From: a virus
Taxonomy: Duplodnaviria; Heunggongvirae; Uroviricota; Caudoviricetes
IMG/VR virus record: IMGVR_UViG_2721755647_000003
Location: 1 to 41,420 of that record
DNA: 41,420 bases
Strand: one strand, 5' to 3'
Part shown: piece after piece, positions 5,630 through 38,104 of the stretch
Layout: each line of letters starts with the position of its first letter
Position numbering within the stretch: position 1 is the stretch's first letter
Notes under the pieces: generated by a model
What the model was told of the DNA's origin: nothing
The model's input: the letters and a program-made list of their open reading frames with translations, nothing else
Databases searched by the model: none
Translations under genes and position numbers: made by a program

Positions 5630-6214
5630 TTATTGTTTGTTTTTTTCGTTCTGGTTGATGACAAATTCAATGTAACTTTCGATCTTTGCTTTCTCGGTTT
5701 CGGGTAACAATGCGTAGCGCGAGCGATCATAGTTGATGGTCGCAGGGTCGTGCGGGTGAATCAGTAATTCATAGCCGTGACGCCCGAATGCGGATGCAAC
5801 ATTCTCCAGGGTGGAAATGGAAACGCTGACCTCATTGTTTAACAGGCGGCTGATTGTCACCTGGGCTACGCCGGATGCGCGGTGAAGTTTTCCCTGTGTT
5901 GAAAGGTCGCGGCTTTCGCTCATCCAGCGTTCCAGGTTGTGAGCCGCCAGCTGGCCAATGTCGCTTGGGCCGACAGGCTGAAAACCTTCCTGAGAAAGCG
6001 AGCGATCGATATCAAGCCAGTTACGGGGTTTATTGGCGGCAGCTTCAATTTTTCGTGCAACCTGGTCGCCGATAACCTTCTTGCCAAGAGCCCAGCGGTT
6101 TACCAGATTTGCCTGAGTTCCAAGTTTTTCAGCCATCCGCGTCTGAACACCATTGAATTCACGGTCGATCAAGTCGTTGAGATTTTGCCTGCGGACGTCC
6201 TGGATACTTTTCAT
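5630..6214 (-). CDS. Prophage repressor, CI-like, with two HTH (XRE-type) segments and no recognisable S24 peptidase domain (194 aa)
   Basis: HTH-like segments MAEKLGTQANLVNRWALGKK and VAQVTISRLLNNEVSVSISTLENVASAFG; divergent from a Cro-like gene; no GDSM-type Ser/Lys autocleavage motif seen. Confidence 0.75.
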   Translation of the reverse strand: MKSIQDVRRQNLNDLIDREFNGVQTRMAEKLGTQANLVNRWALGKKVIGDQVARKIEAAANKPRNWLDIDRSLSQEGFQPVGPSDIGQLAAHNLERWMSESRDLSTQGKLHRASGVAQVTISRLLNNEVSVSISTLENVASAFGRHGYELLIHPHDPATINYDRSRYALLPETEKAKIESYIEFVINQNEKNKQ

Positions 6215-6645: not shown

Positions 6646-6749
6646 TATCTATTCGTACCTCAAAGGTAATAAAAAACCAAATCTGGTTGATCTTTTTTTT
6701 GTGTCAGCACAAAATGACCGTAATCCCAATACTAATAACAGGGCTTACC

Positions 6750-31483: not shown

Positions 31484-32044
31484 ATGAAGGCAATTATATT
31501 TTTTGTTTCAATATTGATGTCTGCATTTTCTTTTGCAGGGCAAAATGTTAAATGCGAACTTCAATACTTTGGAGATAGCGATAAATTTAAGGTAACTCAG
31601 TTTTCTTTTATGGGGATTCCATCTGATTCATACCTTTATACCTGTGCCGACTGTGGAGGCATCCAGATAAACGTGTTCCCATCTATTCAGACTGTTGCTT
31701 CCTACTCATTTGAAAACAACATTGATTTCGAAAGGAAAATCAATGCTGAATACAACAGAAAAGACATAGCTAAACTTGAGATGGAAAACGTTACTCAAGG
31801 CGGGAGAATAAAATATTCAATCACCGATACTGGTTTGGCAGAGTTTTACCCAGAGGGCAAAAAGATAAGCTACCTCTACTTTTTAGCCAAGCAACAAAAT
31901 GGTAAAGAACAAGTAGGTTATTCAGGATTTGTTACCTCTAACGGGGATAAGTCATGCTCAATTATTGCGACATATCCAGGAAAAGAAATTTCTTTTCTGG
32001 GAAGTAAATCTCTAAGCTACTTTATGAATCATATATCAATGTAG
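31484..32044 (+). CDS. AT-rich secreted protein of unknown function (186 aa), signal peptide predicted by eye
   Basis: N-terminal MKAIIFFVSILMSAFSFAGQ hydrophobic signal; Cys-containing mature part; marked AT-richness relative to neighbours. Confidence 0.6.
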   Translation: MKAIIFFVSILMSAFSFAGQNVKCELQYFGDSDKFKVTQFSFMGIPSDSYLYTCADCGGIQINVFPSIQTVASYSFENNIDFERKINAEYNRKDIAKLEMENVTQGGRIKYSITDTGLAEFYPEGKKISYLYFLAKQQNGKEQVGYSGFVTSNGDKSCSIIATYPGKEISFLGSKSLSYFMNHISM

Positions 32045-32057: not shown

Positions 32058-32083
32058 AGGCCGCTTTCGCGGCCTTGTTTTTT
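32058..32083 (+). terminator. Intrinsic terminator after the secreted-protein gene
   Basis: AGGCCGC-TTTC-GCGGCCT followed by TGTTTTTT. Confidence 0.65.
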
Positions 32084-32160
32084 AACGAATGCCGCCTCCG
32101 CCCGGGCGGGAATCCGCAGAACGCCCACCGCAGCGGGAGCCGTCAGCGGCAGTATCGTTG

Positions 32161-32673
32161 TTATACTATTGAATTAAATGATATCTTGTCCTTAATATCA
32201 TTAAGTTTGCCATATATCTTTTTTGCATAAGAATCAGCTTCCTCAATAAACTTCGACTTCTCATTATCAGGCATATTTTTGAAGGTATGTGCACATGTAT
32301 ATTGAGAGTAGTAATTGTGAAACTTGTTATACAAATTATTGAGTTCTTGTAAGTCTTTTTTATACTCAGGAAGGTATATGTTTATTAGCATTTCCATCGT
32401 TTGCAACGGATTGACTTTTGATGTGTCAAATTTACTACCAGAGTGGTAACTGGCATTGTTAACAAAATTGAGAATAGCCACTTCGCTTGAAGCTATGACT
32501 TTTTCAGTAAGTATGCAATTTGTGAATAATTGCTCACGTTTATCTCTTAATATTTTTTCGCGCTCTAATTTTATGCTGTTTTTGTATCCTTGCCTTGCAC
32601 TTATGTAAGTAGAAACTATAGCAATAACTGCACCTATCAATGCGCCTAAGATAGTATTATCCATATAAGCCAC
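32161..32673 (-). CDS. AT-rich membrane-anchored protein of unknown function (170 aa; one N-terminal TM helix, then coiled-coil-like domain)
   Basis: Hydrophobic TILGALIGAVIAIVSTYI segment; Lys/Asn/Tyr-rich remainder; third gene of a minus-strand operon. Confidence 0.6.
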   Translation of the reverse strand: MAYMDNTILGALIGAVIAIVSTYISARQGYKNSIKLEREKILRDKREQLFTNCILTEKVIASSEVAILNFVNNASYHSGSKFDTSKVNPLQTMEMLINIYLPEYKKDLQELNNLYNKFHNYYSQYTCAHTFKNMPDNEKSKFIEEADSYAKKIYGKLNDIKDKISFNSIV

Positions 32674-32689
32674 CTAAACTGCGTAAAAA

Positions 32690-33553
32690 TTATTTCCTGC
32701 CACTTCTGTAGTATATGTTGCGACCATTTTTGGTCACATTAACAACATGCCCCTTTGTTTCTACTTTGTTATTTGTTGCCTTATATACTTCAAAGTCAAA
32801 CCATGATATATGACTTATTTCGTCTATAGATACCATAATTTCTAGACCTTGAACTTTCTTTTTGCTTATCCCTTTTATCGCAGCACTGCGCTTAATTTGG
32901 ATTTCACCTGGGTAAGCGTTTGTAAATGTAACAGATAAATTTTCTTTGTTTCTGTACCCTGACATTAAAGGAACAAAAGATATGTGTTGGTGTGGCCCTT
33001 GATTTTCCGTTAGCTCACCAGAACCATTTATTATTCCAACGTATACTTTATTTGATGATAAAGTAATTAACATTGGTTTCTTAGGATCTGATTCGATTGC
33101 ATCAAGCAATAGCAAATCTAAAGAACCCTGGGAGTACGTTTTTCGCAATACTCTAGCTTTCATTGCCTCTGATATTTTGTCATAAATATCACGTTTATAA
33201 AAACAACCTAAAAGAAGATCTTTTAGCCAAACAAAAGATACATAACACAAAGAGAAGCAAATTGATGTGGCTGAGAGAAGAAGCAGCCACATGTAAATTC
33301 TATCTGTTTCTGGTTTTGATGTTACATTAAAAGTTTCCACCATATCGTGAACTAGGTGAAAATCAGGCCATTTATATTTTATAGCGGCTGCAATTATTAC
33401 TGATGCAACAAGGCAATATGTACCTAGTGCCGCTACCTTCATATAAAGAAGCTGGCCTTCGTGTCGGTATAAACGGAAATAATGATACTGGTTAGCGGTT
33501 ATCATAATATAACCGCTAACCAGGATTGGGATAATTAGAAGAGCTAGCAACAC
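32690..33553 (-). CDS. AT-rich integral membrane protein of unknown function (287 aa; about 3 TM helices plus C-terminal soluble domain)
   Basis: Three hydrophobic segments in the first 110 residues; GTG start overlapping the upstream stop (TAGTG). Confidence 0.6.
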   Translation of the reverse strand: MLLALLIIPILVSGYIMITANQYHYFRLYRHEGQLLYMKVAALGTYCLVASVIIAAAIKYKWPDFHLVHDMVETFNVTSKPETDRIYMWLLLLSATSICFSLCYVSFVWLKDLLLGCFYKRDIYDKISEAMKARVLRKTYSQGSLDLLLLDAIESDPKKPMLITLSSNKVYVGIINGSGELTENQGPHQHISFVPLMSGYRNKENLSVTFTNAYPGEIQIKRSAAIKGISKKKVQGLEIMVSIDEISHISWFDFEVYKATNNKVETKGHVVNVTKNGRNIYYRSGRK

Positions 33554-33762
33554 TACTTCCTTACAGTGGCAAGATCCTGTTTAACAATTGCAGCAGCGAG
33601 ACGACGCATCTCCTTAACCTCAGGAAGCTCAGAAATTTGCTGTGATGAGATATATACTCCACCACGCTTGTTAACCTGCGCTGACGCCGGAACTTCTGCA
33701 TTTTTTGCCTGAGGGCTGGGTGCATTATCCCTCGTTTTTGTACGAGCGAACCAAAATCCCAT
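33553..33762 (-). CDS. Small basic protein (69 aa), first gene of the AT-rich operon; possible DNA-binding or regulatory protein
   Basis: ATG at 33762 with strong GAGGAGG RBS; operator palindrome 27 bp upstream. Confidence 0.6.
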   Translation of the reverse strand: MGFWFARTKTRDNAPSPQAKNAEVPASAQVNKRGGVYISSQQISELPEVKEMRRLAAAIVKQDLATVRK

Positions 33763-33788
33763 ATCTCCTCCTCATGTAAACACATGGT

Positions 33789-33803
33789 TTACCTTTAAGG
33801 TAA
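33789..33803. promoter_or_regulatory. Perfect palindrome TTACC-TTTAA-GGTAA upstream of the AT-rich operon
   Basis: Exact sequence; a TAATAT -10-like hexamer lies immediately upstream on the minus strand. Confidence 0.55.
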
Positions 33804-33868
33804 TATTACGCGAATCTACATCACATCGCCAATGATTATTTTAAAGGCACATCCCTGTGCCGCCGCCG

Positions 33869-34579: not shown

Positions 34580-34733
34580 GGTGGTTATCTCCACTTAGTG
34601 ATTTTAATCACCACCGCAACGCCAATTACTGGTGGTGAACTGGACAAGGTTGGCGTACCGGCCTAAGTGGTACCGGCGTCCTTTCGGACCCCTGCCCAGC
34701 CCACCATAATTCGGATATAGCTGTGCTTAACGC

Positions 34734-34758
34734 ATAAAAAAACCACGTCTGGCGTGGT
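34734..34758 (-). terminator. Intrinsic terminator between the two Bro-related genes
   Basis: Minus strand reads ACCACG-CCAGA-CGTGGT followed by TTTTTTTAT. Confidence 0.5.
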
Positions 34759-34848
34759 ATGCGCCACTTAGTAACTCGGGACGCCAATCCCGGCACTGGA
34801 TTTTGCCAGTACCCGATTACTATGGCACAAGAGGAGTGCGATGTAAAT

Positions 34849-35347: not shown

Positions 35348-38104
35348 ATGACGGTCTCAACCGAAGTTGACCACAACGAATACACCGGTAACGGCGCTAC
35401 GACATCATTTCCGTATACCTTCCGTATTTTCAAAAAATCCGACCTGGTTGTTCAGGTGTCTGACCTGAACGGGAACGTAACAGAATTGGTTCTGGATACC
35501 GGTTATACGGTAACTGGGGCGGGCACTTATAGTGGCGGTTCTGTTGTTCTTCCGTCGCCGCTTGCTGCTGGATGGCGAATTACGATAGATCGTGTGCTTG
35601 ATGTAGTGCAGGAGACAGACCTTCGCAATCAGGGAAAATTTTTCCCCGAAGTGCATGAAGATGCTTTTGACTACCTGACGATGCTGATCCAGCAATGTTT
35701 TGGGTGGTTCAGACGTGCATTGATGAAACCATCTTTGCTTGCAAAATATTACGATGCAAAGCAAAACAGAATTTCTAACCTTGCAGATCCATCACTTGAG
35801 CAGGATGCTGTAAATAATCGCTCAATGCGTAATTATGTTGATGCTGCAATCGCCGGAGTTGTTGGTGGTTTTGGTTGGTTTATTCAGTATGGTTCTGGAG
35901 CAGTATACCGAACGTTCCAGGATAAGATGCGGGATAACGTTAACGCTCTTGATTTTGTTCCGTTTGAGCAAAGATATGCTGCATTAAATTTTGAAGTTGA
36001 TGCGTCTGAATGGTTAATTAATGCGATAAATTCTGGTGCAAGTGTCGTTAGAATACCTGCAGGTAAATGGATGATTTCTAAGAACATAGATGTGCCTCCT
36101 GGAGTGTCATTAATTGGTGATGGCATTGATTATTGGGATACATATAGACCAGCGCCTGAAAGATTATTAAAAAGTTGGAGTAAAGGAACCCATCTTGTAT
36201 TTACTGGTGATGGAGAAAAAAACAAATATTTTTTTAACATCTCTAATGAAAGACCAGTTAAAATTGTTGAAGGGATATCTTGTAAGTTCACTGAGTTTAC
36301 AAATGAAGATTCTGTAGGTGTTACTCCTGCTACACCAAAAGCCATGAGCGTAGCTGTTAGTATCAACAGGGCATCACAGTTACGCAACCTGAGAATAATG
36401 GTAAGTAAAAATGGTATTGAAGGATACAATAACCCTGATTCTTATTCATTGGGTGATGACTGGGATATAGGGTTGCATGTATACGATAGCTGTGATTCAG
36501 TTATTGATAACGTACAGATTGTCGGCTATTGGAGGGTAAAAGGACTACTACTGACAGAAAATGACGGGAGCCTTTCAATGAAGGGAAATCCTGAAAAAAC
36601 GCACTTTAATAACGTTTATGTCCAGTCAGGGATCGCGATAAGGAATAGCCCTCAGATTGATCTTGTAAGTAATACTGAAAGCTCAGTGACATTTAAACAT
36701 AAAAAGTCGATGAGAATAACTTCAGTTAAACAGTTTAAAATTGCTGGCAGTGAATCAGTATATACGTATTCAGATGCATCATTTGATGGAGCTAACATCA
36801 CACTATCTGGTATTTCTCCTGAAATACAAGGTACAATAAGTGTAATCAGGTTTCCGTCAATTGGTAATAATTTTAGCGGGACTGTTTTTGAGAATACAGT
36901 AGCCACTACTCTTGATCATACATCAGGTAAGCCATCAGAATACTTTGGCCTTCCTGCATCCTTTGCATTAGAGGTTGATGGTTTCCCTGTTCGTAATTTA
37001 AGGTTTGATAAATTCAAAGCTCAAACAACATTTGATAAAGGAAATTGCATTTTTGGTGATTGCCGTGATGTTAAAATAACATCATCTGAGTTTGAAAATG
37101 GAATTATGATTGCGTATAACCTGACCGAGACTCAGGGTTATACAGGAAATCTTAGATTTTTTGCTTCTGATCTTCAGAGCAGCGTTAACACAAGTGAGTT
37201 TAAACCAAGAGACGCATTTGTAGACAATAGACAAATAAAAACGGAGTTTACTGATGGTTCGTTCATTATAAAGAACTGGAGGCCTACAGATACAAAAATA
37301 CAATGGTCGTCTGGAGTAGATGCTATTGTTCTTAGAGAGTCACCTGACGAACAATCAGACGGAAATATTTACGGGTATCACATTGATGGTAAAAGATGGA
37401 TTAATGTTAGTGGATATAACAAAGATATAAATATTTCATCAAGAAACTTAAGCGTAAAAAACCATGGTGATGACTCTGCAGTTATTAATATATTCGGCGA
37501 CTCTGGAAATATTGCCATTAAAGGTAATTTTTCACCAATTATTGATAACAGCAAATCTCTTGGTGCACCATCATTTAGATGGGCACAGGTTTATTCTGCG
37601 AACGGTTCGATAAACACATCAGATGGTAGAGAAAAAAGTGAACCGATTAGTACAAGTGAGCTCAGCTTGTATATGTCTCGTGGTTATGAAGGTGATGCAA
37701 TTCTGGATGCATGGGGAGATATCAGGATTGTAGCTTTTCGCTGGCTTGATGCCGTCAGGGAAAAGGGAGATGGTGCCCGCTGGCATTTTGGTGTTATAGC
37801 ACAACAAGTGAGAGACACTTTCCTCGCGCATGGGATTGATGGAACCAGATTTGGCCTTCTCTGTTACGATGAATGGGATGATAAATACGCGCCAGTGATG
37901 GCGGTAAGGATGATCACTAAAGTTGTGGATGGCGTCGAAATTGAGATGGAAGAAGAATACGAAACAGAAGAGCGAACTCTGGTTTGCAAGGCTGGAAATA
38001 GGTGGGGTATCCGTACTGACCAGTGTTTATGGCTTGAGTCAGCTTATTTGCGTAGAAGAATCGAAAAAATAGAATCACGTCTTGCAATGCTTAAAAGTAG
38101 CTAA
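35348..38104 (+). CDS. Tail fibre / tailspike protein (918 aa): conserved N-terminal virion-attachment region, AT-rich central receptor-binding region, C-terminal chaperone-like domain
   Basis: N-terminus MTVSTEVDHNEYTGNGATTSFPYTF typical of podoviral tail fibre anchors; central part Asn/Ser/Ile-rich and AT-rich; C-terminal region resembles intramolecular-chaperone domains (inference). Confidence 0.75.
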   Translation: MTVSTEVDHNEYTGNGATTSFPYTFRIFKKSDLVVQVSDLNGNVTELVLDTGYTVTGAGTYSGGSVVLPSPLAAGWRITIDRVLDVVQETDLRNQGKFFPEVHEDAFDYLTMLIQQCFGWFRRALMKPSLLAKYYDAKQNRISNLADPSLEQDAVNNRSMRNYVDAAIAGVVGGFGWFIQYGSGAVYRTFQDKMRDNVNALDFVPFEQRYAALNFEVDASEWLINAINSGASVVRIPAGKWMISKNIDVPPGVSLIGDGIDYWDTYRPAPERLLKSWSKGTHLVFTGDGEKNKYFFNISNERPVKIVEGISCKFTEFTNEDSVGVTPATPKAMSVAVSINRASQLRNLRIMVSKNGIEGYNNPDSYSLGDDWDIGLHVYDSCDSVIDNVQIVGYWRVKGLLLTENDGSLSMKGNPEKTHFNNVYVQSGIAIRNSPQIDLVSNTESSVTFKHKKSMRITSVKQFKIAGSESVYTYSDASFDGANITLSGISPEIQGTISVIRFPSIGNNFSGTVFENTVATTLDHTSGKPSEYFGLPASFALEVDGFPVRNLRFDKFKAQTTFDKGNCIFGDCRDVKITSSEFENGIMIAYNLTETQGYTGNLRFFASDLQSSVNTSEFKPRDAFVDNRQIKTEFTDGSFIIKNWRPTDTKIQWSSGVDAIVLRESPDEQSDGNIYGYHIDGKRWINVSGYNKDINISSRNLSVKNHGDDSAVINIFGDSGNIAIKGNFSPIIDNSKSLGAPSFRWAQVYSANGSINTSDGREKSEPISTSELSLYMSRGYEGDAILDAWGDIRIVAFRWLDAVREKGDGARWHFGVIAQQVRDTFLAHGIDGTRFGLLCYDEWDDKYAPVMAVRMITKVVDGVEIEMEEEYETEERTLVCKAGNRWGIRTDQCLWLESAYLRRRIEKIESRLAMLKSS

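Follow-up and report, generated by a model that had tools for sequence, protein, structure and literature searches.

Accessory regions that lie next to the tail-spike or tail-fibre gene and hold an antirepressor gene are known from temperate phages as immI, in P22 (with sieA) and in P1 and P7 (c4-icd-ant). The immI region of P22 also holds the membrane exclusion gene sieA, which is expressed in lysogens, while in P1 the operators of the C1 repressor are dispersed over the genome, one of them controlling the immI promoter. Here we describe a cassette of three genes, which we call g1, g2 and g3, in a region of this kind within the viral record IMGVR_UViG_2721755647_000003; the whole stretch of 41,420 nucleotides that was analysed is referred to below as the window. 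Two of the three genes, g1 and g2, recur together in distant phages, prophages and a plasmid, often in sites that also carry anti-phage genes, and in the window they stand behind a copy of the operator that belongs to the prophage's own repressor.

By DNA similarity the window is a phiV10/epsilon15-like podovirus prophage of the Uetakevirus type. The prophage is complete, running from the integrase gene to the lysis genes, and adjoins yfgH/yfgI; Escherichia coli ECONIH2 (NZ_CP014667.1) is 100% identical to the window over the cassette. The DNA on either side of the cassette is 93-99% identical to phiV10, TL-2011b, HEMP4, ZX5 and others, and the DNA of the cassette itself gave zero matches in the phage collection, sensitive blastn included. 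An initial annotation, made from the sequence, took the three genes for a foreign, lysogen-expressed operon inserted where the ancestral podoviral layout has no genes. This last point does not hold, since phiV10-like phages have an immI-like region with a cargo slot between their ejection-protein genes and the tail fibre gene, and the gene for a BRO-N antirepressor lies in it (ant; Pfam match 1e-19). In phage ZX5, whose DNA over the ant region is 94% identical to the window, the BRO-N antirepressor at the equivalent position, ORF4, promotes the lytic cycle (PMC9782041). Rfam models place a C4 antisense RNA directly upstream of ant, at 34628-34825 on the minus strand (RF01695, 66 bits against a gathering score of 45), together with isrK, also upstream of ant (RF01394, 63.5 bits against 50); the a1/b1 target sites of C4 upstream of ant score 43.4 bits, just under the gathering score of 46.7. 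With C4 and its target sites preceding a gene for an antirepressor, the region is a P1/P7-type immI arrangement in an epsilon15-like podovirus.

The slot downstream of ant is empty in phiV10. In TL-2011b (locus L031, 1796-2495) it contains a 59-residue gene and a gene for a YafO-family toxin behind the same operator-promoter, and in the E. coli carriers it contains g1-g2, with or without g3. Comparison of the same locus in related prophages, which had been suggested as a check for cargo turnover, thus finds different contents from one prophage to the next, and on this basis the slot is best read as an immI-like cargo site with turnover and the cassette as foreign cargo, as first supposed. The resemblance to P22 stops short of sieA, however: unlike that gene, the cassette has an immunity operator over its promoter, and g1-g3 have no match to SieA or SieB of P22, or to Imm or Sp of T4, in Pfam (including SieB, PF14163), the annotated PHROG families or PADLOC.

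A conserved gene pair and a separable third gene

The three genes are real, because each has conserved homologues and a PHROG family whose whole profile is covered by the match: phrog_5739 for g1 (7e-52), phrog_3630 for g2 (4e-107) and phrog_36918 for g3 (6e-99). All three are co-directional, on the minus strand. The first, g1 (33553-33762), encodes a basic, soluble protein of 69 residues (pI 10.4) and lies directly upstream of g2 (32690-33553), whose product of 287 residues is an inner-membrane protein with three transmembrane (TM) helices and a predicted cytoplasmic Sm/LSm-like beta-barrel; g3 (32161-32664) encodes 167 residues, with a single TM helix at the N-terminus and the rest helical. 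Hydrophobic segments number three in g2, one in g3 and none in g1, so the topology first described is borne out. Of the sizes originally given, that of g1 is unchanged, whereas g3 is shortened from 170 residues (open reading frame 32161-32673) to 167, all homologues and the Prokaryotic Genome Annotation Pipeline (PGAP) starting at the ATG at 32664, and g2 may begin at a TTG at 33550, 3 nt after the GTG, where homologues align best (286 residues). The junction TAGTG between g1 and g2 is present as described, but since homologues favour the TTG its reading as a 1-nt overlap is uncertain; coupling looks tight whichever start is used. PGAP starts g2 further in, at an internal ATG (271 residues). 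We consider the long form to be right, because the N-terminal extension that PGAP omits is the most conserved part of the family and contains the invariant TM1 motif (L5, L6, P9, I10, L11, V12, S13, G14 and Y15). The strong ribosome-binding site noticed initially is the Shine-Dalgarno sequence GAGGAGG of g1, read from the sequence at 33767-33773 (minus strand), 4 nt before the g1 ATG. As for base composition, the GC content is 0.357 in the cassette, 0.496 in the window as a whole and 0.52-0.55 in the ant and ejection genes on either side; the AT-richness claimed for the whole applies to g2 (0.354) and g3 (0.315), while g1 is only mildly AT-rich (0.476).

A small open reading frame stands directly upstream of every g2 homologue that could be assessed. 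Among phages and prophages this holds for E. coli, Providencia (in the same slot), Citrobacter and Kosakonia (next to the integrase gene), Cronobacter phage phiES15 (between int and attP) and P2-like phages of Salmonella, Klebsiella, Pantoea and Serratia; the pair is also found on a Salmonella IncC plasmid and in Symbiopectobacterium, Arsenophonus, Sodalis, three Alteromonadales and one Acidobacteria metagenome-assembled genome. In IMG/VR, all 53 loci with upstream sequence have the small gene before g2 and, where it is annotated, it overlaps g2 or sits a few nucleotides away. The P2-like and phiES15 versions, which belong to another phage type and slot, are distant from the g2 of the window (26-35% identity by tblastn). 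The g1-like proteins are themselves divergent, with a common alignable core made up of a beta-hairpin around an invariant glycine followed by a helix, and a profile of the g1 family retrieves 82 relatives. We therefore regard g1 and g2 as very probably a conserved functional pair, and the range of replicons suggests that they constitute a horizontally mobile two-gene module.

Many g1 relatives of about 70 residues (P0218, P0223, P0242 and others) are labelled 'multidrug ABC transporter ATPase' by their sources, an evident misannotation that hides the family. In the symbionts Sodalis (L019, 7779-8878) and Arsenophonus (L020, 7742-8818) the g2 homologue is fragmented and the upstream g1 homologue intact.

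The distribution of g3 is different. Thirty of 5,426 complete E. coli genomes carry the cassette, eight with all three genes and 22 with g1-g2 and no g3. In all loci with readable upstream sequence, all of them in prophages of this kind, g3 comes after g1-g2 (contigs with the most distant g3 homologue are too short for the upstream genes to be read), and among the relatives examined it is confined to the Uetakevirus-like prophage slot of Escherichia-type hosts. No match to g3 was obtained in phage genomes by tblastn, PDB sequence matches were at chance level, and none of the searches gave an informative match. The gene is a lineage-specific, later and separable addition. This bears on the initial view of the cassette as a single lysogen-expressed three-gene operon for superinfection exclusion or abortive infection. 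The genes are indeed co-directional and closely spaced with one promoter and one terminator, and g3 follows g1-g2 wherever this can be judged, but most E. coli carriers manage without it, it is absent outside the one slot, and the operator over the promoter (see below) argues against expression in lysogens. We consider such a three-gene system highly unlikely; the conserved core is g1 plus g2.

Association of the pair with anti-phage hotspots

P2-like prophages have the pair between gpA, the replication gene, and gpQ, which encodes the portal. This interval has been defined as an anti-phage hotspot, and in P2 it carries old and tin (Rousset et al. 2022, PMC9122126). Motifs of the g2 family (LL.P.LVSGY, GQLLY, KxYVG and SGYRDKD) are found in two of the hotspot systems in Table S5B of that study, #43 (93 loci) and #57 (75 loci, both proteins listed), which thus belong to the same family as g2; the small partner listed for #57 has the hairpin motif VVGRG. 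The g2-family motif is absent from the table of tested systems in the same paper, which indicates that the family was catalogued there but not assayed.

We scanned selected genes neighbouring the pair against defence models. Neighbours in the hotspot include bSEFIR (1e-103) and a RecD-like/PDC-S68 helicase; IetS/IetA (1e-272 and 1e-96) lie near the pair in seven IMG/VR loci; PDC-S49 and an OLD/AriA-like ATPase are further neighbours, and GmrSD_N, Schlafen-like and FRG-domain proteins occur in the same slots. Other accessory sites of the pair are the int-attP end of lambdoid prophages and the IncC plasmid. The pair is thus associated repeatedly and independently with defence genes and accessory slots, a link that supports an anti-phage role for g1-g2 to the point where we hold the matter to be evenly balanced. 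The earlier proposal of superinfection exclusion or abortive infection is strengthened by this context and by the defence neighbours, by association, even though the operon composition and the premise of expression on which it was built have not stood.

A validated system of Rousset et al., the AC1 locus (a TIR protein with TM proteins; PMC9122126), was tried as a home for g2 and rejected: neither g2 nor its relatives have a match to it in PADLOC, and the TIR-type gene near the pair in the Klebsiella phage is a distinct one, bSEFIR.

Predicted control by the prophage repressor

The palindrome that the initial annotation had recognised as a prophage operator, TTACCYNNNRGGTAA, has 17 matches in the window against 2.7 expected, a count reached in none of 100 shuffles. 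One of them, TTACCTTAAAGGTAA at 33789-33803, matches without mismatch and lies in the g1 promoter, so the cassette does have its own copy. Three copies (6270, 6287 and 6318) make up OR, which separates the HTH_3 repressor gene (5630-6214, minus strand) from a divergent cro-like gene, and two (5496 and 5558) make up OL, on the other side of the repressor gene and before the early-left operon. The immunity region is 98.3% identical to that of phiV10, whose repressor is reported to have the same sequence as the ZX5 repressor, and overexpression of the latter abolishes lytic growth (PMC9782041). The OR/OL layout around the repressor gene, together with the identity of the phiV10 and ZX5 repressors, identifies the palindrome as the immunity operator. 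Further consensus copies, at least seven, are dispersed at 6655, 8595, 8657, 15321, 33789, 34849 and 35229, recalling the scattered C1 operators of P1; here too, one stands at an immI-like promoter. The dispersed operators front several units, namely DUF1064, the tRNA-Arg/Gp49 side, an 85/91-residue gene, ant and the cargo slot.

The putative promoter of the cassette consists, by match to consensus, of a -35 element TTGGCG (33827-33832, minus strand) and, after an 18-nt spacer, a -10 element TAATAT (33803-33808, minus strand) that abuts the operator. PL (TTGACA-17-AATTAT-operator) and P_ant (TTTGCA-18-TATATT-operator) have the same layout, in which the operator begins at the last base of the -10 element. 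With the -10/start of the g1 promoter lying under the operator, we predict that the repressor keeps the cassette off in a stable lysogen and that infection, induction or loss of repressor turns it on. Expression from the lysogen, as initially proposed, runs against this anatomy. The operator-promoter of the slot exists in two sequence variants and is common to different cargos, with divergence setting in right after the operator; from this position the slot as a whole is likely to be a repressor-controlled early unit. That different cargos, g1-g2 or a YafO-type pair, stand behind one shared operator-promoter suggests that prophages have a class of accessory genes whose time of action is infection or induction and not the resting lysogen.

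Such wiring could also point to an early function intrinsic to the phage, in the lysis-lysogeny decision, in membrane anchoring of replication or injection, in the timing of lysis or in host takeover. The immunity operator sits on the g1 promoter as it does at PL and P_ant, the cassette lies inside an immI-like regulatory region with C4 and isrK RNAs and ant, and in the P2-like phages of Pantoea, Serratia, Salmonella and Klebsiella the pair is fixed right after gpA while the next gene varies. On the other hand, phiV10 and most of its relatives are viable without the cassette, it is rare among complete E. coli genomes (30 of 5,426), the position of the pair differs between phage types, and the pair is also found on the IncC plasmid and in chromosomal spots without phage genes. 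A phage-intrinsic function is, on balance, unlikely.

The leader of g1 contains, between operator and Shine-Dalgarno sequence, an inverted repeat CATGT-N4-ACATG (33773-33786, minus strand). It is present once in the window, its occurrence is at chance level, and its conservation in other carriers is that of the cargo-specific leader to which it belongs; the RNA fold of the leader is indistinguishable from that of shuffled sequences (z = -0.16).

The g2 family and its predicted fold

A word-indexed search found 30 relatives of g2. A profile search of 1.84 billion cluster representatives (clusters at 50% identity) found 2,367 at E<=1e-3, of which 943 at E<=1e-10 and 126 at E<=1e-30. The named members are all 'hypothetical', and none of those scanned has a Pfam domain. 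The statement that the proteins have no recognisable family accordingly needs qualification: Pfam, NCBIfam and PADLOC returned nothing significant for g1-g3 and relatives, but g2 does belong to a family, a very large and uncharacterised one. Its constant parts are the N-terminal TM1 with the loop that follows and the C-terminal domain, with a middle region of variable length in between. The (near-)invariant motifs, LL.P.LVSGY followed by R..GQLLY at the N-terminus and KxYVG ... P.(M/L/I)SGYR(D/N)K ... FD at the C-terminus, are present in the g2 of the window.

Searches for characterised relatives were negative throughout. PADLOC-DB 2.0.0 (5,027 models) gave zero matches at E<=1 for g1, g2, g3 and seven relatives; PDB sequence searches with the g2 and g1 profiles gave chance-level matches; no homology of g1-g3 to known type II toxin-antitoxin families was found in Pfam, PADLOC or NCBIfam; and profile and structure searches, which had been proposed as a check, revealed no homology of g1-g3 to a characterised non-defence function. 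A literature search by accession, for Sm-like defence proteins and for the motif in the DefensePredictor supplements found no paper characterising the g2 family.

The AlphaFold model of g2 has a pLDDT (predicted local distance difference test) of 72 and consists of helices (the TM region and a linker) followed, at about 145-251, by a helix and five strands. An N-terminal helix followed by five strongly bent antiparallel strands is what defines the Sm/LSm/Hfq fold, and the model of g2 shows this arrangement. In Foldseek the top 50 hits are nearly all Sm/LSm proteins, with weak E-values (0.016-0.1) and target template-modelling scores mostly of 0.5-0.67; a fold search of BFVD gave no significant or named match. 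The C-terminal domain of g2 is therefore modelled, with moderate confidence, as an Sm/LSm-like beta-barrel. The three TM segments are joined by basic cytoplasmic loops, and from the positive-inside distribution the N-terminus would be external and the Sm-like domain cytoplasmic. The likeness to Sm, LSm and Hfq proteins and to WYL barrels comes from the model: there is no similarity at sequence level and no Pfam LSM, Hfq or WYL match, and g2 differs from all of them in a low-confidence insertion of about 20 residues (217-235) and in its tether of three TM helices. The model of g1, obtained with AF2, is poor (pLDDT 63), with a disordered N-terminus, a beta-hairpin and a long C-terminal helix. 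FlgV, considered as a precedent for a membrane-bound 'Hfq-like' protein, was rejected, as it is shown in its own paper not to be Sm-like.

The architecture of g2 loosely recalls MscS, which is likewise about 286 residues long, with three TM helices, an N-terminus outside, a C-terminus inside and a cytoplasmic Sm-like beta domain, and which is homo-oligomeric. This raises the question whether g2 might be a membrane channel or stress protein that alters the envelope (ion or osmotic homeostasis) by lysogenic conversion, for reasons that have nothing to do with phages, and some Alteromonadales copies do lie among ordinary chromosomal genes. Kinship with MscS was however rejected (hhalign probability 0.14%, no MS_channel match in Pfam), MscS is not among the top structural matches, g2 has a helical linker between TM3 and barrel that MscS does not have, and the distribution of the family is patchy and tied to mobile elements. 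A role in host physiology strikes us as extremely unlikely.

A stem-loop inside g2

A terminator scan brought to light a stem-loop at 33488-33523 (minus strand), in codons 11-22 of g2, with a perfect 15-bp stem, a 6-nt loop and a U-rich stretch after it; its folding energy is -24.7 kcal/mol. The stem is kept at these codons in several lineages whose sequences differ. One C-G pair is T-A in Symbiopectobacterium; the Citrobacter-type clade has GGCTACA paired with TGTAGTC, where left-arm changes that are synonymous go with right-arm changes that alter the protein (Ile-Thr to Val-Val); and in the L084/L089 clade GTGAGTGG pairs with CCACTCAC (Ala-Asn to Thr-His). Covariation was tested on 33 distinct sequences, clades lacking the stem included. 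Sixty-six per cent of stem cells are paired, against 62.9±0.9% in column shuffles (reached in 1 of 500) and 22-52% in slid controls, and 29 cells are changed on both sides, against 15.6±3.6 in shuffles (0 of 500). Frequent G-U pairs in the stem indicate an RNA structure on the sense strand. The hairpin is a candidate attenuator, translational brake or protector of the g1 part of the mRNA, and each of these would probably lead to more g1 than g2.

An excess of the small upstream product would also suit an addiction module, in which g2 is a membrane toxin and g1 its antidote and which stabilises its carrier with no dedicated anti-phage role. As in type II toxin-antitoxin operons, translation of a larger gene, here one for a membrane protein, is coupled to that of a small gene before it, in all loci, and a feature of the mRNA, here the stem in g2, should favour the small protein over the large one. 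A YafO-type toxin pair occupies the same slot in TL-2011b, g2 is broken and g1 intact in Sodalis and Arsenophonus, and the pair is present on a plasmid. Against this, and unlike type II systems, the pair has no known toxin or antitoxin homology, and g1 has neither similarity to known antitoxins nor a DNA-binding domain or fold that could be detected by Pfam or PDB profile search. Moreover, many toxin-antitoxin-like pairs in such hotspots are abortive-infection systems, so that this explanation overlaps with an anti-phage role and does not oppose it. As a purely stabilising module, the pair is decidedly unlikely.

A possible mechanism

The explanation we favour, although it falls a little short of an even balance, is that g1-g2 is an anti-phage module of inter-phage competition that works at the inner membrane under the regulation set out above. 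The g2 protein would oligomerise through its Sm-like domain, as Sm and Hfq proteins do, into a ring that gathers 18-21 TM helices, and this assembly, with its conserved TM1, would either permeabilise the membrane (abortive infection) or block genome entry (exclusion). The g1 protein, whose translation is coupled to that of g2 and which the stem-loop would hold in excess, may serve as a stoichiometric inhibitor or as a sensor. A stable lysogen would not express the cassette; expression would come early in infection or once repressor is lost, so that protection would extend to the lytic or establishment phase of the phage itself and not to the resting lysogen. The specific combination of ring, pore and inhibitor, taken by itself, is doubtful.

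Several effectors offer parallels. RexAB of lambda and the TM effectors of CBASS, Pycsar and retrons are likewise borne by prophages or islands and combine a membrane protein with a soluble partner, and for them, as here, membrane permeabilisation has been suggested. None of them matches g1-g2 in sequence or through a PADLOC model, and g2 differs in that the membrane protein carries its own fused, sensor-like cytoplasmic domain and in that the partner has only about 60-90 residues. Taken to its furthest, the proposal would describe a new class of immunity: a membrane-tethered Sm-like ring would sense nucleic acid or a phage protein at genome entry, upon which its own TM helices would become a lethal or blocking pore; the system would be wired to the repressor as a 'dead-man switch', released by induction or by a competitor's antirepressor, with the hairpin setting the g1:g2 ratio. 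This is a long shot.

A number of observations weigh against a competition module. The anti-phage role is drawn from genomic association, and the fixed gpA-adjacent position in P2-like phages would also fit a phage-intrinsic function. Some copies, in Alteromonadales and Symbiopectobacterium, lie among ordinary chromosomal genes with no obvious mobile element, and PADLOC, though it covers many candidate families, models neither g1 nor g2. If the promoter is repressed in lysogens the cassette is not a classical lysogen-expressed exclusion system, and the benefit to the host is then unclear. Oligomerisation and pore formation are extrapolated from a fold, that of g2 being a model of moderate quality and that of g1 a poor one, and support for the hairpin is moderate and concerns part of the family, as the stem is absent from several subfamilies.

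Should the anti-phage role be correct, a widespread family (the 2,367 clusters noted above, in Gammaproteobacteria and beyond) would have been missed by current defence catalogues, with an architecture, a membrane-tethered Sm-like domain and a miniature partner, that has not been described for any defence system. The pair is small (about 1.1 kb), offers a clear genetic handle and already sits in the well-studied P2 hotspot, which makes the idea cheap to test.

Limits of the cargo slot and neighbouring genes

Upstream, the slot is bounded by a hairpin, GGCACAGGGATGTGCC, that follows the ant stop codon (33843-33858, minus strand) and is conserved in TL-2011b and other carriers, divergence starting past it. 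At the other end, a 3' remnant of a backbone gene annotated by PGAP as 'transmembrane anchored protein' (32082-32159, minus strand) is cut short where g3 was acquired; in prophages without g3 the gene is intact (53 residues) and follows g2. A GC-rich hairpin at 32058-32075, the terminator of a plus-strand gene for 186 residues, marks the end of the slot and is probably also where the minus-strand unit stops. The whole slot lies between short G-rich repeats, GGGCGG/GGCGG (32133-32141 and 33858-33866), and in phiV10 both flanks are joined directly, as if by deletion or insertion at the G-rich repeat.

The 186-residue gene (31484-32044, plus strand) directly follows the last ejection-protein gene and is a second AT-rich cargo gene (GC 0.357); it encodes a signal-peptide protein of phrog_11983 (unknown function), and related prophages have other small secreted proteins of 137, 149, 98 and 294 residues in its position. 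Beyond ant, the tail fibre gene (35348-38104, plus strand) is called a pseudogene without C-terminus by PGAP (35348-37822). The open reading frame is intact, with 918 residues and a C-terminal Peptidase_S74 chaperone domain, and its central part is AT-rich (GC 0.35-0.38).

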